Source: Raillietiella orientalis
Taxonomy: Eukaryota
Direction: 5' to 3'
DNA length: 64,000 nucleotides
Assembly: GCA_036172245.1 (NCBI GenBank)
Contig: JAYWIR010000042.1
Location: forward strand, 1,054,001-1,118,000
Below, piece by piece: positions 7,701 to 49,600 of the stretch. The translations under genes were made by a program, and so were the position numbers. Numbering within the stretch: the first letter of the stretch is position 1; each line of letters starts with the position of its first letter. The notes below the pieces were generated by a model. That model was not told the origin of the DNA and searched no databases. It worked only from the letters and a program-made list of their open reading frames with translations.

Positions 7701-10700
7701 ATTGCTAGTTGAAAACTACCTCCTTCCAAGCAGGAGCCGCCCTCCGCTTGCTTCCAGGAAGTTCCTGTCTCGGCGACTCCAGAGGGCGCCCGACTCCGAA
7801 TTTTCCAGCCTCGAAGACGGATCCGGAAAGGAGCGACGGGAGACCTTCGACGACACTCCGGAAGCAGCTTCTCGCGGACGACAGGGATGCCCCTGCGGAG
7901 AGCGCTGCCTATTCCCGGTTCTGCATCGGAACCGTTGCGGCTAGTGAAATCAGCATCAGATGGATTGAACTTTATGGGCACCCTCGGTGCTTCCACCGTC
8001 TGTCGAAGCGGCGCCACGAGAGCGGCTCATCGGACTTTTGCCTCCATTTCTAGAGCTGAAGTGTGCTCGTGAACGTCTGGACCTATCTCTTACGGGGCTG
8101 AGCGAAATGAAGAGCAGCTTGTGGGAAAAACCAACTGCGCGATCCCGAAACTGATGCTCCGCACAACTCAATGAGACGTTCCTCAAGGAGAAATGGTACT
8201 TTCACCGGTGCACCGGCAAGTCATCTTTCCATCATACAAACTACCTTTCATCTGCATTGCGACTCGAAAACAGAGAGAAAGAGGGGAGAGAGGGAGAGAG
8301 AACGAACGTTCACTGATTTCATTTTCAAGTGCACCAATCTCTGCGAGATCGAAAGGGTGCGGGAAAATGCTTTCATTGGTTTCCCTTCGGGATTTAGTTG
8401 AAGAGTGCATCCACAAAAGAAACAAAAAAATGCTTTCTAATGGTTTTTGTAGGATGTTAGTAATTATTGAAAGCATTTCGCAAGATGAGTGTGTGTGCTT
8501 CCTGATCCCACGAAGGCATTGAAGAGTCGATGCAGTCCCATCTGCAGCCTCTCGCTGTCTGTCCCGCGCTTCCGGAATAAAAAGAAAGTGTTCCCCCTCC
8601 TCCTTCATATTGCACTCCGAAGTTGCGCTCGCCTAGAATCTTTTTCGACCTAGGGTCTACAGAAGAGAACCTGGCCTTGGCCAGCACACAGATGCTTCTT
8701 CTTCACCATTGCTTTTCGATCTCAGGCAACCTCTGCATGCGTAAGAAACGCACGTTCATGAGATGCGCACGCATGTGCATATCTGCAACATACGCGTTTA
8801 TACGTGTGCGTGCATATTTCTTGTTGGCAGACCGGTCAACGGAAGCTGAATGGGATCAAGCACCCTGATCCCATTCAGCTTCTTCAGAGAAAGGAAAGAG
8901 TCCAAGGTGCATTTTTCGCGTGGTCTCTGCACAGGAATGCGCCGGAAAGCGCCTTGCCGATGAGGTGATTTGCAGGCGTTCTCTTCTGGGGACTGATACG
9001 CAAAGATTTGAACCTGGGAATGGAAGTCGCGAGATTAAAGTACCTGCATCAGCATTCTCGTATGAGAGAAGAGCCAGGATAGGTTTGTTGAAATCATGAA
9101 GGAACATTCTCAGATAATGATGGGTTTGTAAAGCAAATAGGAATTGGAATGTTAAGACTTTGGTCAGCAAAAAGCTGGATTTCAATTACCTAAAATGCTG
9201 GAAAAGGAATTATTGCGGAAAGAATTTAATCTTTGACGATTCATAATTCTGCTTAATCAATAGAAAAACTCCGTGTTCGTCCACAGAACCTTATCAGTAC
9301 TTATCTCTAATCGTAAGGGGAAGCATTTGAGATATCTGAATGTGTATCTTTCATCTTCACGCAAGAATCCCACAAGGGAAAAAAAATAGCTGGATTTCAT
9401 TTAGAGTGTAGCCCGTGGGATGTTCATTAGTGTTATGACAATCTTGCTTGCTTTCATGCCAAACTGCCATGTTCTCATACAATCATTCCGTAAAGCATCC
9501 AAATGCCTCCATCAGTCTTTTGAAAATACTGACAAAGAATCCAGTGTTTCACAACCGGAAAAATCAAGTGACACGCAGTGTCAATTGGTTGTGATTTCGA
9601 AATTCCCTGGAAGGTTTGCATCTTCTTTTCTGATCTGTCACGATAAAAGTTCATTTCGTAATGATTCGTTGCTCATCACGGTGATTCTAGTGGTCATAGA
9701 CATTATCTGAAATCATCTCCGCACAAGCAAATCTATATATGTCTAGGAAAAAAGGTGCATGTGTGCCCTTTGAGCATGCAGGGATCCCGTTTCCGAAGCC
9801 CCTGATTACTCAATTATACTCTATAGTGTAGCCGTTCCGACACACTGAATAACACTGAATGTGATCTCTTGAGTCGAAAAGATGTACATCTCGTGAACGA
9901 GTAGGCTTTCCGAATTATTCCAAGTGTTCGGTTGCCTCGGCTCCGAGACTCTCTGACCAGAGGACGCGAATCGAGAATTAATCAATTGTCATGTAGCTGA
10001 AAGAAAATACTGGAAATCACTCGATTTGATTCTAAAACTTGGATCATAGGGGAGGTGAAACTGAGATGGCACTAGAAAAAAATGAAAAGTTCATTTCTTT
10101 CTCACGTGTCTTATGATTCCTTATACATATCGTGAGTGAATTTGAAATTTTTTTGTCGAGGAGCAAAAGTTATGAGGAGCAAAAATGAATTCAACCCATA
10201 TCGACATTCCGGCTGGGAGAGACTCGGATCCACCCTCTGAAAAATCCAAGATTGTACTTGCGGCATTCTTATTCATTCTTGTTGCTTTTGATTTGTTTTT
10301 GTTTTTTTTTGTCTCTTGATCACTGGTGAACAAGGGCTTCCTTGAAAATTTCAAACAAGAAAAAAAAAAAAAAAAAGGAAAGTTGCATGGAGCAAACCAG
10401 TATGGTAAGCAAAGCTTCGTCGATAGCAGGCATCATTACGAGGAGCATTCGGTAGTTTCTCCAGTTATGAATGTTTCTTGTCATTTATGGCATCGAATGA
10501 ACTTCATCCTCCTCAGGACAAGGTGAAACTGAAGGAAGTTTATGTATGGACCAGGATTTCCTCACTGGTTAGCACTTTAGTACCGTAATGATCAGTGACT
10601 GTCATTGCTATATTGCTCAGTTCAGCTACAGCAAATTGAAAGTGCACGAGAAAAATGAGCATTTGCGATGACCAATCGGGAACAGAACACCATCTCCGTA

Positions 10701-12722
10701 CAGTAGTGGACGACTGCCCCGTATATACGCTTTTTGATGCTTAAACGAGGCTAATTTCAATGGGCGCTCAAATCAGGAACAATGGCACCGGCGAGATGTG
10801 CCCACGCTGAGGAGTCCCTTTTGTCCCGAGAGTTCCACGAAGAAATTTGCGGTTGTTCAATGTTGGCTTTGCTCATCGCAGGGTTCCTGGTGCCGCAAGC
10901 GGTCTTTGGAGCAAGCGACGCTGAGAGCGGCAACCTACCGTTCCGAAGAATCGACTCCAAGTTGCGTGCATCCAAATTAAAGAAGCGGATCAGCAGCAGA
11001 TGTGTTCCTGTATTACGCTTCGGATACAGACATCTTCCGAGCTCACTTTGTTTTTGTTTTCTTCCTCTCCACCTCCACTCCCTACCCCTGAGCCCTCGAA
11101 CTCTTGTCTGTGGAAGCCTTACCCCAAAGGGAACTGGCCCTACCGAGTTTGAACAGGTCGGCACGAAGAATAGGCAGTAAACTTCACGGAAACAAACCCC
11201 TGCGGAACGATGAAAACGGAAACGCCTTCGTGTCGAGTTTTGCAGCTCAGCCATCTTGGCAAAGCAGGTCGTGGAATTTATCAGGGTCTCCGTTTCTTCC
11301 TTCCATGAGAACGTCACCGAGCACCTTGGAGGGCGGTCGTCATGGACGCTGCTCCTCCTTCCAAGCTGCGTCAGGGAACTCGGTGCAAAGTACCTGAACA
11401 AACACCAGGGAAAACTCGACGCCTGTTCCGTCCGGTCTGGGCCCGTCGTTTTGGAATGCTCTTGGCCTTCGGCTGCAGTCACGTCATCTGTCGGATGCTC
11501 CGTCGGCCCTTTCGCACGGCGAAGTCAAGACGAGGTCTGCTGCCGGCAGAAGAAAAGCGCGCTCTCCCCCTTTGCCCTTCGGAGATAGGGGCAGTGGGAA
11601 GGGTGTCCAGGGTGGCGCGGGTTCAGCTCCGTCGTCGCTTCTCGCAGACAGTCACCACCACGCCCCAGCAGCGGGCGGCGCGCGGGAACCCGTGGATCCT
11701 CTGCGCGCCTTGGCCAACGCGCGTGCTCCTCCTCGAAAGACGCGGCACCCGATGCACGATGCTCGCGACGCCTCTTGTCCAGGAAGGAGCTCCTTGAACG
11801 GCGCGATCGAGAAGAGGAGTCCCGAAACGGGGAAAGACTCGTTCCTCTCGCTCTGCCGCGCTTGCTTCCCCTCCTGCCCTCCCCCCTTCCTTCCTTTCAT
11901 CTCAGGTCACGGCATCCCCTCTGATCACCTGCGGATCGCTCATCCCACTGTCCTTGCAGATTTTACGCTCGCGGTACATCTTCAAGATCGTTCCCATGAT
12001 GAACCCGGACGGGGTGGTTGTGGGGAACAGTCGTTGCTCCCTATCCGGCAAGGACCTCAACCGCCAGTTCAGGAACGCCTCGAGGGAGGTCTTTCCCACC
12101 ATCTGGCACATGAAGAACATCGTGAAGAGGTGAGGCGAGGAGCTCCGGTCTCCCTAGACGCCTGAGCCGTCCGACGCGCGCTCCCCCTCGCGGCGGGGGG
12201 CCGTGGAGGGAGTGCCGCGAGCACGCCATTCGCTGCTCGCCCCCCCCCCCCCAGGCTGCTCAGCGAAGGAAAGGTCGACGTCTTCTGCGACTTCCACGGC
12301 CACTCCCAGAAGCACAACGTCTTCATGTACGGCTGCTGCGGGAACGCCTGCGGCGTCGGCGAGCTCCTGGAGCGGCTACTCCCGCTGCTGATGTCTCGCC
12401 GCTCGGCGGAGAGGGTGAGTGGAGGCGGAAGGGCGCGGCCGGGGGGGCGGTCCCACCGCTCACAGCCAGCGCGGGCGGGGGCGGGCGCCCTGCGCAGTTT
12501 TCCTTCGTCAGCTGCAAGTTCGACGTGCGGGTGGCCAAGGAGGGCACGGCGCGCGCCGCCCTCTGGAAGATGGGCCTGCGCAACAGCTTCACCCTGGAGG
12601 CGTCCACCGGCGGCTCATCGGCCACCAGGAGACTCTTCACCATCCGGGACTACCTGAGCGTCGGCAGGGACTTCTGCATGTGCCTGGAGGAGCTCGCCAG
12701 CTGCGACCCCATGGCGGTGATG
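517..12722 (+). CDS. Nna1: Cytosolic carboxypeptidase (M14D, Nna1/NnaD, CCP2/CCP3 = AGBL2/3-like tubulin deglutamylase); core 10 exons, 5' and 3' ends uncertain
   Basis: Phase-consistent GT-AG exons: 517(or 590)-729, 781-933, 2927-3159, 4817-4963, 5035-5194, 5462-5575, 5628-5735, 11960-12129, 12255-12414, 12498-12722. The spliced protein has [10 protein letters not shown] (CCP2/3-type N-terminal motif), [22 protein letters not shown], zinc motif [31 protein letters not shown] and catalytic Glu in SFTLEAS. Start codon not established. No stop at 12722, so further exons must follow (candidate 13251-13762). Confidence 0.93.
1699..1727 (+). repeat. Poly(T) mononucleotide run (29 nt) in a carboxypeptidase intron
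   Basis: Directly visible. Shorter A runs also occur, e.g. 3424-3445. Confidence 0.9.
2166..2446 (+). repeat. Dispersed ~280-310 bp repeat, copy 1 (probable non-autonomous transposon/MITE-like), with internal hairpin at 2283-2323
   Basis: Aligns by eye along its length with the reverse complement of 8702-9010, e.g. cctgtgcagagaccacgcgaaaaatgcac and gcgcatctcatgaacgtgcgtttctt. Confidence 0.85.
8702..9010 (-). repeat. Dispersed repeat, copy 2 (inverted relative to copy 1), with perfect 17-bp hairpin at 8842-8882
   Basis: Reverse complement matches 2166-2446 with a few substitutions and small indels. Arms are gaagctgaatgggatca / tgatcccattcagcttc. Confidence 0.85.
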
Positions 12723-13250
12723 GTACGTGCGCGCGCGCGTGGACTCCGGACGATGAGGGGAGAGGCGCCCCGAAAGGCGCGGAAATGTCCTTTCGGACCT
12801 CTCATGCGACCCCTGGGACCCCGGGAAAGAGGAAGGCAAGGAGGAGCTTCTCCCTTCCGCCTGGAGGGAGCACCGGCCGTCCCTCCCCTCTCGGAGTGAC
12901 GGAGCTCCCTCCACGTCTCCCTGACGATCCGCGAGGAAGTGCGGCAGACGGTCCCCCGGGTGGTCCTGGAAGAGTCGGGATTGTTCCGTCCCCACAGACT
13001 ACCGCGCGCGCGGCCCTCGCCGCAACCCCCGCAACCTACTGAGGAACCCTCTGAATCCGGAGCGGCCCAGCGATCGTGGACACCGCTCGCTTACCCCCTA
13101 GCTCCCAGAGGTAGCTCAGCGGAGACCTCGATCTGCTCTTCTAGTCAACCGTGCTGCCCAGCCCCGCCGATTTTACATTAAGAGAGCGAGCGAGCGCGCA
13201 GCGTCGGAGAGCACAACCGCACCATCTCCTGCCCTTCCTCCTTTCCCCAG

Positions 13251-13762
13251 GAGACGAGCGGCGTGGAGGTTCTCCCCTCGGCGGCAGCAGCCGCTTCTTG
13301 GAGCAGGGTGGCTCGCCACCACTCCCCGCGGGCACGTCAGACAGGGCGCCCTCCTGGAGGTCGGGGAGCGGGAGGCAGGCAGACGACCCTGGTCGCTGGC
13401 AGGGGCTGCGGCGGCCTCCCTGGAAGCAGGAAGAGCCCTTCCATTCCCCCGGAGAGAGGCGGGACACGCCTTGGAGGCGTTCCCCAGCTCAGCCTTGCCC
13501 GCCCGCATCGCGGCCAGGAGGTGGCTGCTCCCACCCTTCCGGGAGCCGCAAAAACAGCACGGGGCATTCCGGCGACGGCGGCGGTGCCTCTCGGCCGGGT
13601 GTTCCGGGACGCCCGCTGCGAAGGACACTTGGCGGGGGCGAGCCCTGAAGCCCTACAGCCCCGAGTCCGGAAGGAGGGCGCGACGGGGCGCGGAAGGCGG
13701 CGGCCGAGGAGGAGACGTCGGCGAGGAACCGACGGAAGGCGCCCCCCCTCCGTCAGGAAGAG
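13251..13762 (+). CDS. Candidate next exon of the carboxypeptidase (low-complexity Arg/Gly/Pro-rich tail)
   Basis: Strong pyrimidine acceptor (cccttcctcctttccccag) in phase 0, matching the phase-0 donor at 12722/12723. 512 nt open, ending at AG|gtaggt. No homology support, and GC-rich sequence stays open by chance. Confidence 0.45.
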
Positions 13763-16700
13763 GTAGGTCGCTCCTCCCCCTCTTCTCGCTACGCCCGCTC
13801 CTTCCCTCCTGGAGCCGAGGAGCCGCCCACCCTCCCCCGCGGCTCAGGAAGCCTGGAGGAAGGGGAGTTCCTCCCCCCTCCCCCCTGTCCCAGCCGGCTG
13901 CCTCCGCGGACGCTCCTGCGCTTCCGCCTCCGGGAGGTCGGTTGCAGCCCTTGTCGCCGCACCCCCCCCCCGCCTTGGAGCCTCCAGCAACAGACAAAGA
14001 AGCGGGAGACGCCCTTCTTCCCCCTCCCGCAAAGGAACGGGAGGCGGGAAGGCAGCCCTCCCTTCCTTGACTGGGACCCTCCAGCAGGTCCCGGTCAAAC
14101 GGGTCTTCATTGCAAGATCTCCTCATCTGGGGCCATCGTCCCCCCCCCCAGCGCGCTTGTGACAAAGGCGGGGGGTCAGGCCCTGGTCTTCTCGCAGGAA
14201 GGAGGGGTGAGGCCCTCGGCAGGTCCAGATGAGTTCCTCTTCCCTCCCTGCCCCACCCCAGGCGCTCCCACAGCTGCTCTCTGCCCACGTCACCTCAGGA
14301 ACGTCCATCGGGAGAGTTTAGAGCGTGGGGCGGAGGTTGGCGGGGCAAAGGGGGGCTTCAGCTGTCTGGTGGATCGTTCCCGGAAGACCGCCTCTATTGA
14401 GGAAGCGGGGAGTAGGGGTGATTGGGTGGGGAATATTGCACACACCGCTTGCGTTTGCAGGAGGTCGGTGCGTTGCCCCGGCTCAGCCGCTTCCCGGAGC
14501 ACGGGCGGACGGCTCTCCGGGGGACTGCGTCGGGAGTCCACCCTAGGACAGAGAAAATATCGTAAGCCCTGGGGCGCTCGAAAAAGCGTCTTCTTCCCTT
14601 GCTCTCAACAGTGGGCGCGGCGGGTGGATCTCAACCGCATGGTCAGGTCCCGCGCGGACACTCCCGCCTTTCCTCTGCCTTCCCGCGCGCCGCTCTGGCG
14701 GGTGGGAGGTGGGGGAGACGGCGACAGCTCCTCTCCTTTAGGCGAGGAGGAGTGCGTGCACGTGTTCCCTTGAGCGCTCTTCTTCCTTCCAGCAACCCCA
14801 GGGTCGTCCGTCCGAGGGTCTCGTGAAGTCTCCCGAGACAGAGCAGGGGACCACAGCAAGGACCTCCTCCTCCCGCTGATCTCATCGCCAGCACCCAACC
14901 GCGACGGCGGCCCGCACGCGGGAGGAGATTCCGGAGGCCTTCCTTCCTTCTTCAGGCTGCCGAAGGAACCACCATGGAAGTCATCGTTTGCCCCTTCCTG
15001 GAGGCAGGCGCCCGCACGCGGCGGACGGCACGCCCATCCAGTGTCCCCACACCCCGACCGGGGGAGCAATAAACCAGGGAACGTGACGCCGGCCCCACGG
15101 CCGCATCGCCGGGCACTTTGCGGGGTCTCTGCAGGCTCACGAGAGGACACTTCCTTCCGGACCCTCGAAGTGAGTGTTCCGCCTCCCTTCCCGGTGGAGG
15201 AGCGCGAAACCTCCCGGAAATGAACCAGAAACCGGAGCCGAGAGGGCGCTCCGCAAGATGGGGAGCCAGGAAAGCACTTGGGGTGCAGCATGGGAGGAAC
15301 CACCCCTTCCTTCCCTTCGGCCGAGACATGAGAGAGCTCATGGAACCTGCGGGCGAGATCGAGGCGATATCTCCTTTCGGAAAGCTGAGCGGCTCTCGCC
15401 GAGAGGAGGTCAGGCGAAAGTTGGTCTGTCGGCTGTCAGCTCTCCGAGACTTCCGCTTCTCGAGGGAGGCCCCTTCTTCCCTCATTCCCCTAACCCCACC
15501 GTCCCTTTCTTCCTTAGCAGACTCCACTGCGCTTGCATCTCCTCCTCCGTGCCCGGCGAGCGAGCGCGCAAGAGCGACGCTGCCAAGGAAACTAGGTGCT
15601 GACCCGGCTTGTCGATGAAGACGGTTGGCGGAAGGTGAGGGCCTATGGAAAGCGGCGGCACGTGCAATGCCGACCATCCTCGCCAGCGACCGGCTGACGA
15701 AGGCGCAGGACTTCTGACCTGGAGTTGGAAAATCGAAACGGAGGCAGGAAAGCACCCGTAAGGGTGGAGTAGCTCCGATGGGTGCAACTGCATGCTGCAG
15801 AACGAACTCCACCACCCCTAGTAGAGCGGAGAGGAAGCGACCCTCTGAAGGGACCCGTCAGTGGCTGCAGAGCACGGGAAAGTCACGCGAAAGGCGACGG
15901 ATCGGGCAGACAGCAGCATTCGAAAGACTTCGGAGGCAGAAGGCGAGGACCTCATTCGGATACGGAGGTCACCGTGCTGCGGCGACGGCAGCAGCAGCCA
16001 CGGAGCGAAGTGTCCAGGCGTCCTACGGGGGCATGCAGGAAGCTGCCTCCTTCCTACCCTCATAGATGGAGGAGGCACGCGTGCCAGGGGCAGCATACCC
16101 CGGGAAGAGAATGCCGGCGAGGACCCGCTGCGCTCCTTGCTGGTCCGGACCAGGAGACGACGAAGAACACCGTTCAGCAGCAGCAAAAGCTGCAGTTTGA
16201 GAGCCGTAAGAGTTGTTTGGACATTCGGATGCATCCGCCCCACTGATTACCCTTCCGCTTCTGCAGCGCCTTCATATAAAAGGTGGATCCTGGTTCCACG
16301 GTCACCACGAACAACCCCAATGGCGGGTAGCGCAGATTCGAGTGGATCTGAGACGATTGGTGAATCACCCTTCTGTGGGTCGCGAATTTCCTCTCAGGTC
16401 ACACTCGCGACGGTGCCTTAAACGTTGGTTTTGCATAGGAAGACTACAGTCCGGCTGCCCTCCGGAAAAGAATCACTGACCCGCTACCTTGGCGCGCGTG
16501 GAGCAAGGAATGGCGGAGGCAACCAGGGGATCGGAAAGGGCGGCGTCAGTGGGTGAAGCGCCCTCAGAGCCCATCAGGAAAAGCACGAAAGCTCTTGGAC
16601 GCCAGAAGGAGCCTCCCTCTGAGAAAGGAACCGAAGGAGCCGCCCTTCGAGAGTTTCCGCAGATTGGCAGGTCCCCAGCTTTGCCTCTGGGAGCCCGGGG

Positions 16701-19341
16701 CCTCCCAGACTGCGCTTGAGTACGCACAGTTGTCCTGAGACGAACCTGCTCAGCAACCGTCTTCCCGAGATAAGCAGGCGCGCGTCGCGGTAGAGTGAAT
16801 ACCTCGGCTGGCGACAGCTCCATGAAAGGTGAAGGACGCGCCATGCAGGCTCCTCTTTCGAACGCCCACCCTTCGCTTACCCCTCGGGACGGCTAGGCTC
16901 GCGCCGTACCTCTGTAGGCCGCGAAGGCGGGGGAGGGAAGCGGGCAGCGACTGTGGCGCTTCGAGGTCCACTTCGAGGACGGGCGAGATGCGTTCGACGG
17001 GACACTCCGCCCTTCTGCGGACAGCCTTCAGTTTCCTTCCCTACGCCGCGAAGCGGAGGACCTCGTCTCCCACGCCTCGATGGGTGCAGCAGCTGCTCCT
17101 GGGATCGAACGTGGTGGAGAGGCGTTACACGGTCGACCGCAGAAGCAGCCTGGGCGGCGGAGGCAGCTCTGGGATGGTAATGTGGGCAGCTCGCGGTGGC
17201 GCAAGAGCGGCAGCCAGATCGACCCTCTCTCCTTCTCCCTCCCTCCCACAGCTCGCCCCCAAGGAAACGGATCCCTTTTCGTGCCTCCAAGCGGTGGTAA
17301 AGGGTGTCGAGAATTGAGCAGTCGGGGAGTGGCTCTCCTGCCCCACGCTCGCCCCGAGACGCCTTTGGGTGCGGAGGTCACCGGACGAAGGCAGGAAGTG
17401 ACAAGCCACAGAAAGGCCTCTCTTTGTCCTCAGCATCCGCGGACAAAGACTGGAGCGCACAGAGGATCTTGCGCGTGCTGGGGTTAACAGCCCAGCATGC
17501 ATTCCTGGGGCTCGCCATCGTCCGCTATCTGGGCGTGATGCTCCAGGAGATGACTTTCCTAGCGACCGGTGAAGCGACCTGAAAACTTGGGATGTCGGGT
17601 TCCTTGCCAGCCGCAGTGCTAGGTGGGAGAGGAAGGGCAGAAGGGGGAGGTCAGCACGCGTCGGTCAAGGCGCGCTCCGGATGACCTCGGGCCTTGCTCC
17701 GCGTTTCCTCCCGCTCCTGGCTGCTCCCCTCGACTTCTCTGGACGACCTCAGGCGAGCGTCTCCGGGGAAATCGCAGCGGCCCCGAAAGAGGAATCGTCC
17801 CGAGCGAGCTTGCCTGAAGAAAGGGGAAGAGAGAGGGGAGGGAGGGAGTTTCTTTGTGAAAGTGGCACGGCGATCCCCGCGCAAGCTCGTCTGCGGGATC
17901 TCCCGCTGCACCTGCAGCGGGGATCTTCCTCCGGGACCGTCATGGATGTCGCGAGAGCTTGGTAGAGACGACCCCGGCGTCTCAAAGCAATCGACCCGGA
18001 AAGCGCGCCATCGAATCCGTGTCAGGAGGTTGCCATCTCCTCCCTTGCCCCTCCTGGGATTGCTGGACGCGCGCGTCGCGTCGGACGCTCCCGCAAGGGC
18101 ACATCGCGACGGAACTTCCCAGCGCGCTTTCCCGTACTCGCCTCCGAAGCCCGCAAGAGCGGGAGGATTCCCAGGATGGATGGCTGACCGAGAGGCGCGT
18201 GCACGCGCACGTCCCGCCTGTTCGCGTTTTTTGGTGCTGCGCGGCGTGATCGTTCCGGAAACGGCAGGAAGAGGGCCCCAGACGCCATGTTTCCCGCTGC
18301 AGGCCCCTCAGCTAATACCCTTTCCCTAAGCGCTTGCTAGGAACAACCGCTTCTGCTTCTCGCGAGATACTTCGGAAGATGCTGGAATCTTCCCGATGCC
18401 CCGCAATTGTGGGTCGGACTTTCAAGACGGAGAAATTTCGGGAAAAACAAGGCAAAACGGAAGCGAAAAATCGACACACAGAACAGACGTTTTGCGGGAA
18501 CGCGAACGCCTGTGTCCGAACGGTTGCCACCCATTGCTGACGGTGTGCGGCGTCGCCTCGCGTCGTGAGGTTGCCACGTCCACGTGGAGCGTCCCCTACC
18601 CGCGAGCAGGTTCCGCTTTTTTCCACCCGGGTTCCGTCCGGCGAAGGCCGAGGATAGAAGAGCCTCACCGGGAATTTTCCATTACGACTGACTTCATTCA
18701 GGACCAGGACAAACTTGTCGTGCTTGTGGACATGCGGGAATTCCCCCTCGCGAGTGCAACCGTTTGAGCGGCACGGAGGCGCGCAGTGGAACTACAAATC
18801 ACCGTGGCAGAATGATGGAACTCAACAGGTCTCCCGAGTTTTGTCATTCCTTCGGCACAAACTACAAGGTAGATCAATGGAATGCCATTCAGGGGAACTG
18901 CCGGGAAGCTTGTGCCTTTCCACGGGCGCAGCCTGGTTCGCACGAGTCTGAGGAACGCGCACGATCCACCCCATCCCACCCCATCTCCTCCTTGAGCGGC
19001 GTTCCCCATGACGGAGCGCGTCGTTGTCAGCGGCCGGGCTGGCACGTTATCTGAACCAGGAAAATCAGTGGGGAGCTTCGCGGAGAACCGCGCGCGTGGG
19101 GAAGGGGGGGGGGGGGATACCGCCCTCGAGGAGGAAGCCCGCTCACCTAGCGGCGGCGGGCGAACGCAACCGAAAGCACAACTCTGGCAAGCGCGGTCCC
19201 GCGAAGCCGAAACTTCCAGAGCGCGTTTCAGGAAACTGCGTGGAGCGATCCTGCGATCCTCAGGAAGCCGTTATTGGATGCTGAACAGTTATCTCTCGTG
19301 ACGCGGAAATTTGAAAGTCAAGTATGGGAAGAACTCTGGGG

Positions 19342-19349
19342 TATAAAAA
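19342..19349 (+). promoter_or_regulatory. TATA box of the calcitonin-like gene
   Basis: TATAAAAA inside very GC-rich sequence. It is followed by a plausible non-coding first exon (~19372-19481) ending in G|gtgagt, which splices to the acceptor ttgcag|20175 lying 16 nt before the ATG. Confidence 0.65.
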
Positions 19350-20190
19350 GGGGTGTGTGCGCAAAGATGAGCAGATCGTGTCTGTCCATCACGCCCTCAG
19401 CTGCCTCGTGCCGCCACAGGAAGCAGGAGAGGAAGGTGTCACTCTGTCGTTCCTGGTCGCCTCTTTCTCCGAGTGCGCTGGGTGAGTTCGGTTGTCAGTG
19501 TGCCCGGGGGAAGGTAGGGGGAAGGACCTACCCACCCACCCACCCTCCCTCCCCTCCAGCCTGCCGTCGTCCGCGAAGCTGCCGCTGGGGAGGCCTTCCG
19601 TCTTTGAGGACTTCGGCGGGGTTCCCTCACGCGCTCGGAAGGGAGCGCGCACCTCGCTGGGGAAATCTCGTGCTCTCCAACCCCCCACCTGGGAGGCGGA
19701 TGGCCACATTTCTCGGGGTATTGGCGTGGGGAAAGGGGAGAGGGGAGGAAAAGGGGAACCAGGTTCCCCCGTCTTCCTGCTCTCACCGCAGTGTCACCCC
19801 TCAGCTTCGACGCGGATCGGGGTGGCCGAGTGGCTCGAGAATCGCAAAGGGGAGAAACCTCCCGCGCCCTGTTCCACAGGTCACGCGGGAAGCTCGGACT
19901 GCTCCCGTGCGGGCTGGGGCGAGGAAATGGGGGGAGGAGGGACAGGGGTGGTTGGAAAGAGACCGCGGGGAGAGCGCGCCTCGGGCTCGTCGGCCATGCG
20001 CTCCCGGACGCTCCCGTCGCGCTCGCATACGGCGGCCACCGGCTGCGGCGGCTTCCCCGCGTCCAGCGTTGACGAGTGCTCCCTCGTCCCTGATTGGCCC
20101 GGAGCCCCCGGACGCGAACAACCCGGCAGCCGGAGAGCTCTGAAGCAGAGCGGCCGCTTCTGTTGTGCTTGCAGGTTGCTTGCGGGAAGC

Positions 20191-21855
20191 ATGAACGGCG
20201 TCTTGGCGGTCTTCGCGTCGCTGATGCTCCTGATGAGTGGCTGCTCAGCGACGACACAGGAGGAGCTTATCTTGAGGTAAACCCTTGCCCCTCCCCCGCC
20301 CTCTCTTCCTCCCCACCCTCCTCCTCTGCCCCACACAGTTGGGGGACTCAGTGGCTGGCTTCCACAATCCGCCACCCTTCTCGTCATCCCTCGGTTACCT
20401 GAGCAATGATCAGGAAGAAGACGAAACGAACCTCACCCCACTCAAGGTGGATGTCGGATGCACCCAGAGGATGATGACGAGGATGGAGCAGAGCAATTCT
20501 CTCGGCGCCACCCTATTCCTGCGGGGGGGTGCACAGGAAAGGCTTCTCCCTCAACGCCCCATGGGTGCCGGAGGCAGTCGGCGGTCCTCTCTCTCGCCCC
20601 AGCAGCAATAGGGCCAACCGGAGGCTCCTCAAGTCCCAACACTCCCTCTTCCGTTCCGTCGAAAGCCACTCTCTCTCTCTTTCTTGTTCCTCCTCTTCCC
20701 CCTTCCGCGTGCTCCCGCCTTGCTCTCCCTCCCTCTTTTTCTTTCTTTCAGATACTTGGAAGACCTCGAAGAGAACAGGAAGACGATGGAATACCTGAAG
20801 GAGCTGGTGCAGTCTCTAGACCAGGGGATCGAAAGGATGCAGTGAGTTTGCTCGCGCGCTTTCCCGAAGGCTCCCCGAAGAGGAGCGGTCCTGCCCTTCC
20901 CTCCATATTAGTGCTCCCGCGTTCCCTCCCTTCCCCTGCCCCCTCCCACCTTTCATTCCCCTCTCTCATCCGCAGAAGGAGAGCAGGGGAAGGGGAAGCT
21001 CTATTTTCCCTCCCAAGGCGGCGGCATGGAAGCATCGGGCTCCCCCTTCCGAGTGCCGGAGGGCGTCCTTTTCCAGGCTGCAGAGACAAGGAGGGAAACA
21101 ATCGAGGACTCGTTCACAACCTCTGACGGGGCTCCCTGCCCACGGCTTCCTGCCTGCCTTCCTCTCTTTCCTCTGTGCCTCCAGGGGAGGAGTGCTACTC
21201 CAGTTTGCTGCCACGATGGCAGCCGGTCCAGAGACAGGCGCCTGGATTTTTGTTCAGCTTTCTCCCGAGGCTCCTTCCAGGCCAGGAGAAGGAGGAGACA
21301 GGTGGGGTGAGAGACGGAGGACTGAACGGAAGGGCGTCAGAGGAAAGTCCTTCCGTTGGCGGACGCTCCGGCGCCCCCGTGCAACGCAGCTCCTCTCCCA
21401 GAGTGGCGAGGCGCTCTCCTCGTTGCTCACTCGCCCGTCCTGCTCTCGGAGCTGCGGCGGATGAGGGAGGGGAGTGGGTGAGAGGGTGACACTGCGGCAG
21501 GGAAAACGCCTTCTCCGAGATGCCCAACCTCAGGACTGCTCGCCCTTAGCCCTCCGCATCCACCACCCCTCCCGCCTCTCCAACCGCGGCTGCACCACCG
21601 TCCTTGGGGGACGCGCATGCTTGGCGATGATATCCTTCTGCCCACCTCCTCCTCCGCTCCTTCTCACTCTCTCTCCCTTCCAGCAAGCGGACCTGCAGCA
21701 TCGGGGCGGGCCTGTCGCAGAGCTGCGACTACAAGGACGTCCTGAACGCGGTCAACGAGGCCAACTACTGGGGATCCAAGGCGTCCCCCGGGAGGAGGAG
21801 GAGGAGGTCGGAGGAGGCGGCCTCTCCAGGCGTCCTTCCTGCGAGACTCACGTAG
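20191..21855 (+). CDS. Calcitonin-family neuropeptide precursor (115 aa)
   Basis: Coding exons 20191-20276, 20752-20841 and 21684-21855, joined by phase-2 GT-AG introns with long pyrimidine tracts. Protein: MNGVLAVFASLMLLMSGCSA (signal-like) TTQEELILRYLEDLEENRKTMEYLKELVQSLDQGIERMH KR TCSIGAGLSQSCDYKDVLNAVNEANYWGSKASP G RRRRR SEEAASPGVLPARLT*. A KR-cleaved 33-mer with an N-terminal Cys pair and C-terminal Pro-Gly-polybasic (Pro-amide) is the calcitonin architecture. Confidence 0.9.
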
Positions 21856-21935
21856 GCTTCGGGCGCTCCGCGGACGCACGCTCGCCTGGGGCCCGCCAGC
21901 TTCCCATCTTTTGCTTGCTCGGGGTCTCCCCGATG

Positions 21936-21941
21936 AATAAA
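21936..21941 (+). terminator. Polyadenylation signal (AATAAA) of the calcitonin-like gene
   Basis: AATAAA 80 nt after the TAG, in GC-rich context where this hexamer is rare. Confidence 0.7.
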
Positions 21942-23062
21942 AAGTGGGGAAAGCAGTAAGAGCGAATGGGTGTGTCTCTCCGTCCCCACCCAGGTTTCTT
22001 CGGGAAACGAGATGAGGAGGGGGGAGGGTGCAAGAAGGCATGAGGGAAGGGGGCCCAACTGCGTTTATCCCTTGCGCCTTCCCTGCTCTCGCAGCTGCGC
22101 CTTTTCAACCTGGTCTGGACGGCAGGGCAGGCTCGCCGCGGATGGGGAGGGGCACAAGGAAAACAGGCAGAGAAAGAAGCTTGAGACGAACGCATCCGAT
22201 CCCCACCCCCTTCATCCCACGTCCCATTCGAGCACTTGCAGATTGGGGAGGGATGCGTCGGGAAGACTACCGGAACCTTCGTCCCCATCTCCTTGGTAGC
22301 GGTGCCGTACTGTTGCAGAACTCGGACCTTCTCACCCTCCTACTTCCCTCCTGGCTGGGCATCCTCCGGAGGTTGCCCAGCAAGAAGGGGAAGTCTGGAT
22401 CGGTCCCCTCAAGTGCCCTCCCTTGGACATGCACCAGAGAATCAGGAAAAAAAAAATCCCTCCTCTCTCCTCCTACTGGAACAAGAGAGTGGACCCGCGG
22501 GCAGATCACAGGCCCTTTTGGGCCCCGATCGAGGGCCCAGTGATGTTCCCTCCCCTGACTCGCGACGCTGCCCGGGCTGTAACCAAAGGGGACTGGCTGG
22601 CACTCCCGTCGATCCGCTGCTGGCGGACGAGCGTGTGAAAAAAAGGCGGACTAGTCGGTTCAGGGATGGAAGATGGGAAATGAGAACTTCAGGTTCCCAA
22701 GACTCCTTAAGGATACAGGCCGGAGATGAGCAGAAACCTCCCAGATCTCGCCCTCTGGCCCCTGTTTCCCTTGCTTCCGCTCCCCAAGAGCTTCGACTGG
22801 AAGATTTTGCAGGAAGCTGTCTGTCCGCTGACCCATCAACGCCGCGCACATGCAATCCTGCCAGAGCTTCCGGCTCCCGGGACCTTTCTTCCCCCGTTTC
22901 GATGCCTCTACAGGTTAAAAGCCTAACCCCTCCTTCCCTGTTCCATCACTGTGTCACCCTTCCCAGTTCTCCAAGCTCTCTTAATGACCAGGTTCCACAT
23001 AGTCCCACGAAACTCTCCCCAAACCTGCGGCCCTCCCATGAAATTCTGTGCCCAACTGGGAT

Positions 23063-24048
23063 CCGGCCCTGCCTCGCCTCCTCGATCCCTCTCCCAACAC
23101 AGGGAACCCATCGAAGAGGAATGAAAGAGAGTCGAAGATCTTCCAGGGCGGCTGGACGAGTGACCAATAGCGACGCGAGTTGCCGATCTCTCCGCAAACG
23201 TTGATCGCAATTGCGTGCGCCTCTCCGGAAGGCGTCGTCGGTTGCACGCACATAACTCGCAGCAGAAGGTTCCGCTGCCTCCACGAGGACGATCCTGTGA
23301 GTCGAGGACGAGAAGGACAGGGGCGAAGGCTGGCTCCGGCAAGCGCCCGTGGGGTCTTGCCCCCCTCCCCTTCCCATCTACTGGGCATACATAGGAGACT
23401 GCGAGCCGGGGGAGAGGTCCCAAAACCCCACTAGGTCTTCAGACCGGAACTCGAGGCTATGCTGCTTCCCCGCCCCGTTTCTGGCACGGTGCAAGAGGGC
23501 GAGGTGTGGTGCCTTCTCGGCATTCCCCTCACCCTTCCCCATGAACAAGCCTGATTGATCCTTTGTCCGGGTGCGGAGGAAGGGGGAACAGAGCTGAGCT
23601 ATCCCCGCCCGGCTGCCTGACTGGCTACCAGAGAGTTCCGAGAGAAGCCCCGGAGTCCCTAGAAAGATGCCCACCGCAGCCAGGAGGCGGTACATTAAAC
23701 TTCCTCTTCCCTTCATCTCCGATGGGAAGGAGAGAGGTAAAAGAGAAGTAACAGCATCCTTCCAGACGGGGAGTCAAAAGGAAAGCTGATCTAGGGAAGC
23801 GGGAAGGGTTGACTGGGGAAATTCCCCAGAAAAATTGAAACTAATGACAACGGCGCTCCGATATCCATCTGCACCCCGGCCCTGCCTCGTTCTCTTCCTC
23901 CCTCCCACAACGCAGGGAACCCATTGAAGGGGAGTGGACGGGCTTCGAAGATCTTCCAGGGTGGCCGAACGAGCAACCAATAGCGACGCGCAAGAGTGAC
24001 GCTAGCGACCGATCATCAGTTTGCTACGCAGACGTTAATCGCAATTGC
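23063..24048 (+). repeat. Diverged local direct repeat, two copies (23063-23214 and 23876-24048)
   Basis: Shared blocks ccggccctgcctcg, cagggaacccat, tcgaagatcttccaggg, accaatagcgacgcg and atcgcaattgc occur in the same order in both copies. Confidence 0.8.
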
Positions 24049-27000
24049 CAGAGACCTCCCGCTGCTCTCAGGGGCACATCCGACGTCCCTATGGCAGGTT
24101 CCCGAGCCTTCCCCTACGTTCCTGCAGCAGGAGGGAGGGGCGCAGGTAATCCAGCATCCCCCGTGGGTGAGGGAAGCGACCCTCTGCTGCTGTTGCCAGA
24201 AGCAGAGCGGTCGAGGAGCGATTTGAGGCGAAAAAGGTCTCCCTGACAACCCTGGTCGGAAAGAGGGTGGGAAGCCAGGGAGGAAGGTAACCCCTTCCCC
24301 TTCAAAAAGGAAGAAATAGCAGAGAATCAGCCCGTGTGCTCTTCTTGGAGGGCAACAGAAGATCCCTTCCCACTCCTCCTCCCCTGCACAGGACCCAGAC
24401 ATGGACGTCCGTTTCGTGCAGAAACAGATTCTCGGGTCTCGGACTTCGAGAGAAACCTGAGTCCGTTACTCCAGCGCACGGAAACCCGTCAACGGGTCGG
24501 TAATGGTCGGGAAGTCAAAGGGGGGTGGAAGGGGCGAAACAGGAGCGAGAAACCTTCCTTCCGTGGTGGACAGTGGTCAGAGAGACCTCGAGAGAGCCCA
24601 AGCCGGAGGAGAGGAAAGGAGTGGCTTTCTTGCTGCAGGAGGCTCAAAAGCCTCAGCATCCCGGCTGTGAAGCGTCTCTTCCTTCCTTCCTTAGAGCGAG
24701 CCCTCTTAGAGCAGGCAATGCGCGAAGAGGTCGTCGTCGACAAGCAGCTCCCTCCACCCCGCGAGCTCCCCCGATCCTTTTATCCACTTATAACTCCGAG
24801 ATCAGGGAAGCAACAACGAGGCTTCTTTCACCTTCCCGGCACGGAGCAGAAGTCTCTGAAGACCAGAAGGTCCTGACCCACTCATCCGTGGTGCGAACCT
24901 CCGTGGGACGTCCCTTTCATCTTCCCAGCGCTTCGAGACAGGGGGAAGCGGATAACGAGGAGACGAGGAGAAGAGGATAGCGATCCTCTTCTCCTCCCTC
25001 CGAAAAAAAAAAAAACCTTCAAAGAGGGACGGGAGATGACTGACTGGAACTGACGGATGAGTCGCATGCTGGGAACGGCCTGTCCTTTCACTCCCAAGCG
25101 TGTGAGCTCAACGAACCGCAGATCCTAGTCGAAGATGACGCCAGCCGGTGCCGAACCTGGACTGAGTGAAAGAGGACAATGGTCGCCGGGAAAACGAACA
25201 GGGAGTCAGTGAGGAATCACAGTTGCGTCCCTAAGGTGCTAAAGACCCTCCCGGTGGCACAGAGGAAAAACCTTCTCTTGGGGTCCTGAATGCAAGGAGG
25301 TTGCCTTCTCCGAGGATCCTTGTGCAGCACTCGCTCGCAGGTCGCAGTCGAGAGACCGTAAGGCAGCAGAATTATAGACGAGAGCCTCCGAGACCCAGCC
25401 CTTGATAGCACTGTCCCCGTGTCCGCGGGTGGTCATTTCGGCAAACCGATGGCCGGCATCTCTGTCGTTCATTAAAAAAAAAAAAAAAACTCGATTGAGT
25501 TTTCGAGGTCCACGAATCCGTCACCTCTTCTGACGTTCACGGGGCGGAGTTCTGCGTGGGGATTCTCGTTCTGAAAGAGACGGCTTCCAAGGAAGGCAAA
25601 CGAAAATCAGGCAATGGAACGAAAGGAAAAAGGGGTGGGAGCGGAGAGAGAGAGAGAGAAATCTCCTGTTCCAAAACTGAGAAACGAAGTGACACTGAGA
25701 GATGATGGGAAGTGTGTGTTCAACCGTTCAACCAGGCAGGGGGCGATTCCGATATTTTTCTGATGACTGCGTAGGGATCACTCCTCCAGTTTCTAAGAAG
25801 TCTTTCAGGAAGGAAGCAGACGTTTTGTAAGTATCACGGCGGCTGCCTCCTGTGGTGCGAAGACACCTGATGCGAACGGGGACGAAGAGGAAAACGATGA
25901 CTACCGAGGGTCCCAGGAGTCATTACAAAAGTCTTGGATAGGCTAGTAGTCGGGGTCACGCCATCAGCAAGAAACGGTCAATTCGGGCGAAGAAGCGAAC
26001 CACGATGGAGCCAGGAGGACGAATTTAAAAGGTCAGGTTAGTAGGCGAGTGGCTGGCTGAATACGAAACATGTTAATGAAGTTCGAATTGGAGGGAGTGA
26101 TCGAAAGGGAGAAGGTACAGAGTCTCAAAAGTAAGGTGCAAATAAATAGTTTGAAAACAATCCAAAAATTATTTAATGGGAGATATGAGGAAATCTGGAT
26201 ACGATATTTGAAAGTCAAGCATCCTGCGCTGATGCCCACCATTTCGAACTGGGATTTACGGACTTCCAAAAATTTTTGTGCTGAGAAAAAAGGAATAAAG
26301 TTCTGTCGAAAAAAGCGACGTCGGATTTTTGTGTCGACTGATCATCGTAAAAATGGTGCACTTCCATTCTCATCGAGCCCATACCTTCTGAGATATGTGC
26401 TAGATGAGAAATATAGGTGTTTCGCAACTTGGATGGAGTGGATGGATGGCCTATTTTATCGGGATGTCACTTTATTTTTCTCGGCCTGGTACACAATAAG
26501 AGTGTGTCTTAGGTGTACGTATAAAGGAAAATGTGACAGGGATATGGGACAGGCACCAGCAAGCCTTATCGTATATGCATATGGTCGACATGTTGTTCAC
26601 GTTGGTAATGTTTTTTTCCTTTGGCAAAATCAAAAATGCAGAAAAGGCGAACTTTTTTCTAAAGAGAAAAAAAATAAAATAATAATGCATATCCATTTGC
26701 GACTTAACCAGGATAAGGGAACCTAGTGAGGTCCTGCTGTCCACACATTGCTGTTTAATGTTTGCCATTATTTTCAAAGGGAAACGCACTCATTATCTCA
26801 AAAAGAAACTCCTGAATGGCTCCTTTCCTATGTCGTGCAGAACGATTCACTTTGACACCGATGGAATATCCGCTGCATAATAGAATACAAAAAAAGATAT
26901 CTAGGAGTCGTAACCTCGAATCAGAAACAGACCAAATGAGCGTGGATAGAATTTATCCACAGTAACCTATACATCTAGTCTCGTCTCTACAAGACTTGAA

Positions 27001-30319: not shown

Positions 30320-31324
30320 ATGCCATTGTCCGGCAGTAGTAGCATAATAGGTTCAAGCTCCATACGATCTCTGGTTTCAACAAGAACTTCTCGAACAGGT
30401 AGAAGTTTAAAGAGCTTAAAGCAATCTAGACTTGACAAGTTAAAACGCCCATTGTTGGAAACAGCATATTTTACTGACTTGCAAAATGGATCTCTGTTGG
30501 CTGGTATTTACTCCATTGTAAGATTTATTTCAGTGCATAATAATAAATGATTGTGATTTTGTTAGGTGCTCAGTTTATTCACTGTTTCCATTTCCATTTT
30601 TGATATCTATTGCTTAGCAATGGCAGAGCCAGGAGTTACCCACTATGGTTATTACATCTTTAGCTTCGAATTTGTTTATGTTGGCAACATGCATGGTAGA
30701 TATGTATGGCTAATTGTAGCTAATTCTTGGATTTTCTTATATCTGTCCAAATAGTGAGAAATTTTCTGATTGTGACAGCTGCTTTGAGCATTATCTTTGG
30801 GATAGCCATAACATTTACCTCTGCCTTTTTGCTAACAGGAGTCCTGAAAGTAAGAACCTTTACCATTACAATTTTGAAATAACATTACTTTATTGTCTAA
30901 TGGGTGGATTTGTAGGAACGGGAGCAAAAATTCCTTCCTTGGCTGTATTCTATGGCAGCCTTCATCTTTTTTCGCCTTTTTGCTACCATCTTCAATGCAA
31001 TTGTCAATGACCTCATCTACAGTTACCATATAGCTATGCTACTAGTATGGATGGCATCTCTGGGAATAAGTGTATTTTTCTGGCTAGTAGTGTATTCATT
31101 GTATATGCAATTGTGTGATCTCACACGTCTGGAGGACTTGGCTAAATTCAAGGTCAGTAATCAAGGATTTTTTCTGATAATGGCACTTTTAATTACAGCT
31201 GGGTACCATGAGCTCCCTGAATGCCTCTCTGTCACATCACTCTATGTCAATGAGCCTTGGAGGCTTGGGATCACGACCCACCACACCAGGAGAATCCTTG
31301 TCTGTTACAGGAATCATGTGTTGA
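30320..31324 (+). CDS. pasi2: Pasiflora-2-like tetraspan septate-junction membrane protein (261 aa)
   Basis: Exons 30320-30517, 30566-30695, 30755-30849, 30916-31152, 31199-31324 (786 nt, in frame). It has a Ser/Arg-rich N-terminus, RPLLETAYFTDLQNGSL, FDIYCLAMAEPGVTHYGYYIFSFEFVYVGN, four hydrophobic segments, and DLTRLEDLA..GTMSSLNAS..GSRPTTP, all as I recall them from insect Pasi2. Confidence 0.88.
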
Positions 31325-31441
31325 AAAAGCACTGGGAGATTTTTTTATCACAAAATACAGAATGATAGATCATCAGTGTATCTGACTGCATCCTTGCCAC
31401 CATAGGGAAGATGATGAATTTGAATCAGCACAATTACCCAG

Positions 31442-33481
31442 TTACTTGGACCGGAATGAGTCTATTAGGTGATTCATGGTAACATAAGACCCAGTGGCAA
31501 AACCCAAGAGCCCAAATATGCATATGGCTGCATTCTTCCACAGACGCCAGTAACCCTTGCCCCAGCAAGGCCAAGAGACGGCTGTTTCAATTATTGGTGG
31601 AAAGCAGAGGGCCAAAAAGGTGCTGCTCCAACAACCGACCAGAGCAATGAACAACTCAATCTTAGGGATGGTGGCAGCCAAAAGAACTAATGGGAACTAA
31701 ATGGTAATTATTAGAAGCACTTACATGTGAAAAGCAGCAACACCAGTCGCAGACCATATTCTATCCATATCACATTGTAGATTGGCGAAACTTTTTCTAA
31801 TACATAAGGCAACATGATTTCAATAGGCACATAAAACTGCAGAGGAAATGAAAAAAAGATGTCAACTACAATAAGCACTGTCACAGCCACAGCCAGCCTG
31901 GAACACAAAGTGCTGTGATCCACTGCTAAGTAAAAACATATATGTCTTACGGATCTCCCCGTGGCAAATTGAGAGTTACACTTCCTTGTGCATCATCACC
32001 ATACTTCAAGTAGCCATAAAAACTCATAGCCACGTAAAGTAAAGTTGCCAGGTTCATACTAGTCACTAGTACTCCACTGCAACCCACAAAGTTCTGAGGA
32101 TGCTTCATTTTGTTCTCAATTGGTAACACCTAACCAACATCTAACTTATTACTCCAATATTATGCTTACTACGCCTATGGATTCATAAGCAAAGACTATC
32201 ATGCCAAAGAAAAATGGCAGCTGTTCCCAAGAAGATACTAGTTTACACTCATACACGTCAGGTATATCAGTGAGCAGGTACTTGAAGATGATAATCAAAC
32301 TTATGGCCAGTGCAACATTGGCCAACGTAGATATGGGAGCCAAATATTTCAGATTTCTGATGGAACAGAGCATTATATACAATGGTAAAAGCATGATGAA
32401 ATAGTATTCCACACGAATGATGATACTGGGAAAGTAATGATCCACCATCTGAAAGCATGTGAATATGCACATCGAACTTTAATGGTTGCTTGCTTACACT
32501 TTTAGTACTAACAGCAACAAATACAGCATATACACAACAGAACCCCATCTGTGTGATACACAAGAACAAATTAACAATTTTCCTGAAACAGAACACAGTA
32601 CTTTGAAATACTCTTCTTGATATGGTTGCAATTTATCCAGATAAAAGTGTACATACCATCCAAGTTGAAATACATAAGGCAAACTGTACAAATGAATTAC
32701 AACTAGAAATATTAATCTGAACCACAATAAATTATTTTTTCCAATTAAAACAAGGGTGTAAGCTCCTTATCATAACTATGCCAATTACTAATATTGATGA
32801 AACATTTACAAATGACAGTGAGCCAAAGTACAAGATGTTTTTACCTCATAAAAATTGAATACTTTTGAAGCTTGACTGGACCATGCTGAAAAGAGAGTTC
32901 AGCTACTTGAGCATATGTCAAGTTATTTTCTTGTAAACGAAGACACAATTCATGGCAGCAGTTGACCAGCATGTGCATGCAATAAATGCAGATTGCTCCA
33001 ATAAGTAAGAGCCCTAACAAGCCTACACCTAAACCAGCATAGGCCATGGCCTGCGGCATGGCAAGAACGCCCATTCCAATATTTGCTTTCAGTAGATGCA
33101 CAAGAGCAACAAGGCTTCTAAAAATAACAGATTCTATGAGGAATTAAAAAAAATGCATCCACAAGAAATTTGATTTTTCTATGTAGGGAATACAAAAATA
33201 TTAGAGTGAAAAAAGTTTAATTTAAAAAAAACATACGAAGTACTGTGTTCAAATTCCCTCTTCATGTGACCAGTCTTATTGTGTAGGTTTAGGGGCATCT
33301 TCAGTTCAGTCTGATCTTTGGAATCATCACTGAAAACAAAGAAAACACCAGTTATTTTTTAAAGGAACATCCCATAAGGCATAATAACTGTTTTATAAGC
33401 ACTAGTATACCGGGATACATTGATCTCTGGCAACAGGGGCTGCTCCTCAACATCGGAAGAAACACTTTCATCGGTGTTCAT
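31442..33481 (-). CDS. Proton-coupled amino acid transporter (SLC36/PAT, pathetic-like; 465 aa)
   Basis: Exons (plus-strand coordinates) 33411-33481, 33237-33329, 32845-33117, 32498-32582, 32170-32448, 31951-32129, 31725-31897, 31442-31686 (1398 nt, in frame). Motifs: HLLKANIGMGVLAMP, TQMGFCCVY, IRNLKYLAP, FAYESIGVVLPIENKM, GYLKYG, PLQFYVP, FPPIIE. Confidence 0.93.
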
Positions 33482-43300: not shown

Positions 43301-43429
43301 GACTTTGCCCCCTTCGAGACCCTGAGGAGCATCGATACGGGGTCTCTCTGTATGCCCAAGTGGATGGACTGAAAGGACGTGGACGAGGTGCGGATGGCCG
43401 GGAGGTGGCCGGTCCGTCGACCTCCCTAC

Positions 43430-49300: not shown

Positions 49301-49600
49301 TTGTCCCAGTTGTGTAGTGCAAATGAACTTGGCCGGAAGAATGATGGAGTGGTGATTACAGTGAGTCTTTGTGTTTATGATTTATTATTCAGACTGATCC
49401 TTTTGCTGCAGGATAACCAAGGAACAGTAAAAGATGCAATTGCAGATAGCATCGTAGATCCCTACTTGGTCAAATTCTGGGCACTTAAATATGCCACAGA
49501 AGCTGCATGTACAGTGCTGAGAGTAGATCAGATTATCATGGCCAAGCAGGCAAGTGGACCCAAACCACGTGATAACAGAGATGGAAATGAAGAAGATTAG
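46377..49600 (+). CDS. CCT8: T-complex protein 1 subunit theta (CCT/TRiC chaperonin; 547 aa)
   Basis: Exons 46377-46436, 47557-47727, 47864-47995, 48044-48242, 48286-48347, 48396-48533, 48574-48819, 48863-49072, 49124-49360, 49412-49600 (1644 nt, in frame). N-terminus MALCVPKPPGIFQMLKEG, then SYGPCGMNK, VTNDAATI, GDGTN, AIMSKQY, SKWDLRRLCK, DDVERAIDDGINTYK, and C-terminal VDQIIMAKQASGPKPR typical of theta. Confidence 0.97.

Follow-up and report, generated by a model that had tools for sequence, protein, structure and literature searches.

A very probable calcitonin-A type neuropeptide gene, split over short exons in GC-rich DNA of Raillietiella orientalis

Short exons scattered through GC-rich DNA can conceal a neuropeptide gene, and a 64,000-nucleotide stretch of the Raillietiella orientalis genome (contig JAYWIR010000042.1, positions 1,054,001 to 1,118,000, forward strand; hereafter the window) raises the question of whether this has happened here. 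An earlier, sequence-only reading of the window had proposed that several short exons together encode a calcitonin-type hormone precursor. Two things have to be settled, namely whether these pieces make up an intact gene and, if they do, to which branch of the calcitonin-like peptides the product belongs. According to our analysis, region 19342..21960 is very probably an intact neuropeptide gene of the calcitonin-A type, its coding sequence being split over three exons that are probably preceded by a non-coding one. We assign it to calcitonin-A because the encoded peptide matches this family and the pro-region lines up with those of published calcitonin-A precursors.

The gene model was assembled from window coordinates on the plus strand, the coding pieces being joined by script from these coordinates. 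All elements listed in the sequence-only reading, from the TATA motif at 19342 and the candidate exon running to 19481 down to the AATAAA at 21936, were found where they had been placed, as were the three phase-matched coding exons of a 115-aa precursor. The TATA box candidate (TATAAAA, 19342..19348) is read directly from the DNA, its function being putative, and the putative non-coding exon 1 (19372..19481) would start approximately 30 nt past it and end at the donor TGG/gtgagt (19481/2). Exon 2 (20175..20276; translation P0003) comprises 16 nt of 5' untranslated region, the ATG at 20191, which has an A at position -3, and the codons for the signal peptide and for the start of the pro-region, and ends in phase 2 at the donor GAG/gtaaac (20276/7). 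Exon 3 (20752..20841; translation P0001) encodes the acidic, amphipathic part of the pro-region and ends at the donor GCA/gtgagt (20841/2). Exon 4 (21684..21960; translation P0002) encodes a KR site, the calcitonin-A peptide, a Gly, the run RRRRR and a 15-aa tail, followed by the stop codon TAG (21853-21855) and the 3' untranslated region; the polyadenylation signal AATAAA (21936..21941) lies 81 nt past the stop codon, and the 3' end of the exon is placed, by prediction, approximately 20 nt past this signal. The coding parts 20191-20276, 20752-20841 and 21684-21855 amount to 348 nt in frame, that is, 115 codons and TAG. The borders of the coding exons follow the GT-AG rule and their phases match; the acceptors ahead of 20175, 20752 and 21684 have long pyrimidine tracts and end in AG, those at 20752 and 21684 being strong, and the introns measure 693, 475 and 842 nt. 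On its plus strand, the GC-rich 14 kb between 12001 and 26000 contains two copies each of the hexamers TATAAA and AATAAA, against an expectation of approximately 0.7-0.8 from base composition, and their placement at the two ends of the gene is therefore suggestive rather than significant.

The predicted precursor consists, in this order, of a hydrophobic leader, a 39-aa pro-region, KR, a 33-aa peptide, Gly, RRRRR and the 15-aa tail. The signal-like leader of about 20 aa noticed earlier is borne out by the hydrophobicity of residues 1-20 (Kyte-Doolittle 11-residue means of 1.5-2.2) and by the small residues C and A at positions -3 and -1, ahead of Thr21; the signal peptide is called on hydropathy together with the -3/-1 rule, and its cleavage site is a predicted one. 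The pro-region (residues 21-59) is acidic, with 10 D/E versus 5 K/R and an isoelectric point of 4.56, and amphipathic, with a best 18-residue hydrophobic moment of 0.63 that was equalled by 12 of 1000 shuffled sequences, in agreement with its earlier description. Immediately past the KR site stands the single copy of the predicted mature 33-aa peptide, TCSIGAGLSQSCDYKDVLNAVNEANYWGSKASP (21691..21789), with a C-x9-C ring (Cys2, Cys12) and the ending SP-G-RRRRR; the putative amidation-donor Gly and the RRRRR convertase site (21790..21807) are read from the P0002 translation, and this whole arrangement is exactly the one that the sequence-only reading had described. After processing, the peptide would carry a Cys2-Cys12 bridge as well as a Pro-amide at its C-terminus, and in this bridged, amidated form its predicted monoisotopic mass is 3444.57 Da.

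Family membership was assessed with the exon-4 product P0002 as the phmmer query against 1.84 billion representative proteins. The search returned 82 matches at E<=1e-3, including four at E<=1e-10, with a best E-value of 8.5e-14. An xC-x9-C...PG[K/R] core is present in 67 of the 82 matching proteins (70 cores in total), and spans 33 residues in 64 of the 70 cores and 32 residues in the other six. A profile built from 58 distinct 35-residue cores was then run on all 1614 fragments of 25 aa or longer from a six-frame translation of the window; its sole match was the fragment 21631-21852, with an E-value of 3.6e-20, compared to 0.17 for the runner-up. Both searches, which are of the kind suggested by the sequence-only reading as a check, came out in its favor. 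None of the five invariant core positions (C2, G7, C12, P33 and G34) is altered in the window peptide; both Cys are found in 58 of the 58 cores, and so are P33 and G34. Near-invariant residues are retained as well, namely D13 (56/58), S29 (55/58), W27 and A20 (47/58 each), and S32 is found in 36/58. The identity of the window peptide to the family cores ranges from 11 to 20 of 33 residues, and the pairwise mean within the family is 15.8. Some of the relatives (P0021, P0004, P0005 and P0009) contain several calcitonin-like copies per precursor; among these, P0021 (446 aa) comes from Lingula anatina, and its annotation goes no further than 'uncharacterized protein LOC106163882'.

Other searches returned little. 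A homologue search with P0002 restricted to longer proteins yielded 132 candidates, none at E<=1; this null is weak evidence, and the phmmer result contradicts it. The search of longer proteins (330-2000 aa) seeded with the family alignment recovered only one Lingula and one Paralvinella protein, and no precursors of the usual size because these fall outside the length range. Comparison to a protein atlas produced nothing at or above a score of 0.9 and only generic peptide-hormone clusters. Strings from the window peptide were absent from the literature text searched, a search that covered neither figures nor supplements, and six strings derived from homologues likewise gave no match there, such sequences residing mostly in figures and supplements.

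Whereas the searches address the peptide, the splice junctions can be judged by the collinearity of the whole precursor. The joined product was aligned with 22 of the 82 phmmer matches, namely those that start with M, are 100-160 aa long and have a single core between residues 50 and 100. Across both coding junctions, the pro-region shows a gap-free alignment with P0008, P0018, P0022, P0062, P0068 and P0071, and residue 62 is the first of the mature peptide, as in P0022, P0062 and P0071. Judging from this alignment, the three phase-matched exons appear to restore the exact precursor spacing of the family. The precursor is also collinear with published calcitonin-A precursors of a termite, a phasmid, a tick and a priapulid. 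The predicted exon layout, which is based on splice consensus and homologue collinearity, agrees with that of the termite gene and of a four-exon shrimp gene.

In an AlphaFold2 model of the exon-4 product (56 residues), computed from an alignment of 25 relatives, a single helix follows the ring and covers peptide residues 14-28, where block pLDDT (predicted local distance difference test) values are 74-83. The same residues are amphipathic, their hydrophobic moment being equalled by 22 of 1000 shuffles. The modelled layout of ring, helix and Pro-amide resembles that of vertebrate calcitonins, a resemblance that does not amount to a sequence test.

What kind of calcitonin-like peptide, then, does the gene encode? 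Veenstra (2014; PMC4237046) described an arthropod calcitonin gene that differs from DH31 and is 'very generally present in arthropods'. In that account, calcitonin-A occurs in one copy per precursor and is followed, past PG, by a polybasic site, as is typical of such precursors, and calcitonin-B usually occurs in several copies with a C-x6-C ring, an acidic center rich in D/E and Gly/Asp, and a single KR after PG. For the A type, the supplement of the same paper gives precursors of a phasmid, a louse, a spider mite, a tick, Caenorhabditis elegans, a priapulid, an onychophoran and a termite. The rule invoked by the sequence-only reading, that a Cys ring combined with a Pro-amide end marks the calcitonin type and that the Cys pair is missing from DH31, can be found in print (PMC4237046, PMC12638048). 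Judged by its sequence features, the predicted window product is of the A type throughout, that is, a calcitonin-A in the sense of Veenstra 2014, not a DH31 and not a calcitonin-B.

The family name is anchored through published sequences, because the decapod calcitonin TCYINAGLSHGCDYKDLVGAMAEKNYWDSLNSPamide, reported to be the same in Lysmata, Macrobrachium, Homarus and Procambarus (PMC7212414), is contained in one of our library matches, P0017. This peptide and the window peptide are identical at 20 of 33 positions in a gap-free alignment with the same Cys positions; they share the length of 33 residues, CDYKD after the ring, YW near the C-terminus and the SP-amide end, and in both precursors KR stands ahead of the peptide and G plus a basic run behind it. 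The 13 substitutions include ring positions 3, 5, 10 and 11, and the window precursor is shorter (115 aa) than P0017 (146 aa) and the Lysmata precursor (164 aa). The resemblance to crustacean and insect calcitonins proposed in the sequence-only reading is thereby made concrete, given also the 82 library relatives and the collinear termite and phasmid precursors.

The termite Zootermopsis nevadensis offers a close parallel in architecture (PMC4237046). Its calcitonin-A precursor measures 113 aa, compared to 115 aa in the window, with the same order of parts, a similar ENR[R/K]T...LK.L...LD...KR motif in the pro-region, a single A-type peptide and a polybasic site past PG. The termite A transcript consists of a non-coding exon 1, a shared signal-peptide exon and two further A-specific coding exons (Figure 2 legend of PMC4237046). 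The termite peptide differs in having one more residue ahead of the first Cys (KR-TSC) and CDNRD in place of CDYKD. Farther afield, Ixodes scapularis, Tetranychus urticae, Priapulus caudatus, Peripatopsis and C. elegans share with the window a single A-type peptide, the C-x9-C ring and PG followed by a basic site, and the tick and priapulid pro-regions are in the same length class as that of the window, the library relatives P0018 and P0071 aligning gap-free (PMC4237046). Peptide identity of the window to the tick- and priapulid-type library relatives is at most 17/33 (P0018), the supplement sequences having been compared by eye.

DH31 and the predicted window peptide have in common a length of approximately 31-33 residues, the Pro-amide end, a polybasic site past PG and the family-B1 receptor class (PMC7212414, PMC4237046, PMC12638048), but DH31 lacks the Cys pair and has another conserved signature (PMC7212414), which is missing from the window peptide with its Cys2 and Cys12. 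Vertebrate calcitonin, CGRP and amylin have the general features of calcitonin-type peptides (PMC12638048) in common with the predicted window peptide, but show no detectable sequence similarity to the window in our searches: Pfam returned nothing at E<=10, and a profile search of PDB sequences at the same threshold found no calcitonin-family chain, only two unrelated ones. The ring of vertebrate calcitonin is also shorter than that of the window peptide. The name 'calcitonin' follows published convention; Pfam and PDB provided no sequence link to the vertebrate hormones.

Several points weigh against the calcitonin-A interpretation and bear on its alternatives. The gene is known here from DNA sequence alone, the Pfam search of the exon products drew a blank, the support for exon 1 and the TATA box consists of consensus motifs, and the overall confidence of the AlphaFold2 model is low (mean pLDDT 66.5). 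Furthermore, the peptide contains residues that are rare in the family, namely S3, Q10, N19 and K30 (1/58 each), A31 (2/58) and G5 (0/58), position 5 being N or H in 56 of the 58 cores. These six residues could mean either lineage-specific change or relaxed constraint. The odd ring residues G5, S3 and Q10 would suit an inactivated or silent relic, that is, an intact-looking calcitonin-A gene that has lost expression or its receptor, and calcitonin genes have been lost repeatedly in insects, with a defective remnant described in the beetle Photinus. However, the frame is open through all three coding exons, the splice sites are canonical, and nothing has been lost of the invariant positions, the conserved motif of the pro-region, the signal peptide or the two processing sites, so we regard a relic as very unlikely. 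The identity of the peptide leaves still less room for doubt. All three types, DH31, calcitonin-A and calcitonin-B, are related and end in a Pro-amide (PMC4237046, PMC12638048), and the protein atlas ranked a DH31 cluster 18th with a score of 0.80, which is below the level counted as more than a lead; yet the Cys pair separates the window peptide from DH31, with its different signature (PMC7212414, PMC12638048), and the C-x9-C ring, the single copy and the RRRRR site separate it from calcitonin-B, with its C-x6-C ring, acidic center, several copies and single KR past PG. On these sequence features a DH31 or calcitonin-B identity is ruled out, and we give it hardly any credence. A chance open frame is the least credible proposal of all: the 12-26 kb block, at 55-70% GC, does abound in long spurious open reading frames, and the six of these scanned over the gene belong to no Pfam family, but the E-values of the profile (with the gap to the next fragment) and of phmmer exclude it, and the 82 library relatives and the three exons with matching phase, consensus splice sites and the exact spacing of the family speak against it as well.

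A more substantial reservation concerns the ends of the calcitonin-A gene. The coding part could be right and the gene ends incomplete or wrong, either because transcription starts elsewhere and exon 1 (19372-19481) is not used, or because a distant calcitonin-B exon is spliced to exon 2. The motif-based support for exon 1 and the TATA box leaves room for the former. As for the latter, calcitonin-B is described as arising by alternative splicing from a common signal-peptide exon in termite, cockroach and decapods: the termite gene, unlike that of the window, has an additional exon for three calcitonin-B copies (PMC4237046), and an alternative exon of the shrimp gene yields calcitonin-B, whereas none was found in the window, the downstream edge of which lies 42 kb past the gene. 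Against this stands the result that the profile and three regular expressions, applied to all six frames of the 64 kb, detected no second calcitonin-like exon of either the A or the B type, the only one being 21684-21855. In addition, exon 4 has its own stop codon with AATAAA 81 nt beyond, the A and B types of Locusta are encoded by separate genes (bioRxiv 10.1101/2021.07.28.454216), and the tick and spider-mite entries in the Veenstra supplement (PMC4237046) are single A-type precursors. Because no other calcitonin exon is present in the 64 kb and exon 4 ends with its own stop and polyadenylation signal, we conclude that the window gene encodes the A type only, and consider misplaced or missing gene ends a real but minor possibility.

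If the calcitonin-A gene is expressed as predicted, its product would follow the usual route of neuropeptide precursors. The leader would be cleaved off as the precursor enters the secretory pathway, prohormone convertases would cut after KR and inside RRRRR, a carboxypeptidase would trim the basic residues, the exposed Gly would be turned into the C-terminal Pro-amide, and the two Cys would close the ring. Release from neurons or neuroendocrine cells would follow, and the peptide may act on a family-B1 G protein-coupled receptor of the protostome calcitonin-receptor group. Both this processing logic and the class of receptor are set out in the literature (PMC4237046, PMC12638048). In an oyster, receptors for disulphide-bearing calcitonin-type peptides raise cyclic AMP and Ca2+ (PMC12638048), and the calcitonin receptors of arthropods, insects included, were described in 2019 as not yet formally deorphanised (PMC6585902). 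Calcitonin-A is reported to be specific to the nervous system in decapods and phasmids, and to be made by neurons and neuroendocrine cells in Locusta (bioRxiv 10.1101/2021.07.28.454216).

The surroundings of the gene are heterogeneous in composition. Blocks 12001-26000, 42001-44000 and 54001-58000 have 55-70% GC and lie beside stretches of 32-46%; the segment 18-22 kb, which includes the calcitonin-A gene, has approximately 62%. The GC-rich blocks are crowded with long stop-free frames on both strands, and the eight such frames searched, six over the calcitonin gene plus 13102-14070 and 22185-23204, matched no Pfam family. Upstream of the gene, exons of a cytosolic carboxypeptidase-like gene were identified at 2666-3163 and 11798-12657 (+), with the Pfam domains Pepdidase_M14_N (2666-3163, +) and Peptidase_M14 (11798-12133, +), and between these exons lies a U4 small nuclear RNA gene (7649-7790, +; Rfam RF00015, 49.3 bits versus a gathering threshold of 46, full model length). 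Hydrophobic open frames at 30916-31365 (+) and 32267-32632 (-) look by eye like exons of membrane proteins, with no Pfam match at E<=0.01. Three exons of a gene for a TCP-1/CCT chaperonin subunit lie at 47864-49600 (+; Pfam Cpn60_TCP1, E from 1e-18 to 1e-30), and a scan for transfer RNA genes found none in the window.

A compact kynurenine aminotransferase gene (38729-40127, -) was delineated by tblastn with four homologues; its coding pieces are only a few tens of bases apart, compared to the introns of 475-842 nt in the calcitonin-A gene. This gene also gives an indication of the lineage. Its exon has 1533 protein matches at E<=1e-20, and among the matches listed the best named single-domain relative of the largest exon is from a millipede (69%), followed by Daphnia and locust (66%). 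In a tree of the window sequence and 30 named rows chosen from the best 120 of the 1533 matches, the window row shares an unresolved polytomy with non-insect arthropods and does not fall within the well-supported groups of pterygotes, spiders, molluscs, hemichordates and vertebrates. By this tree, the lineage appears to be arthropod-grade.

Taken by itself, the gene is an ordinary find because the calcitonin-A kind is already known across arthropods and other moulting animals, and no larger question is opened or settled by it, given that the family, the layout, the processing logic and the Ecdysozoa-wide distribution have been in print since 2014 (PMC4237046). The practical value is one of annotation, in that short-exon neuropeptide genes in GC-rich DNA are easily overlooked by gene callers, and the predicted mass of 3444.57 Da provides a direct target for peptidomics. 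For a family of little-known physiology, the window supplies a further calcitonin-A gene together with a complete exon model. A bolder view, which we put forward tentatively and hold to be somewhat doubtful, is that the window comes from a deep arthropod-grade lineage so far lacking annotation and contains its first calcitonin gene, of the A type only, with no B exon in the window and with an unusual ring. Should this be true, the combination of Ser3, Gly5 and Gln10, each found in 0-1 of the 58 cores, could retune the receptor selectivity of the peptide.

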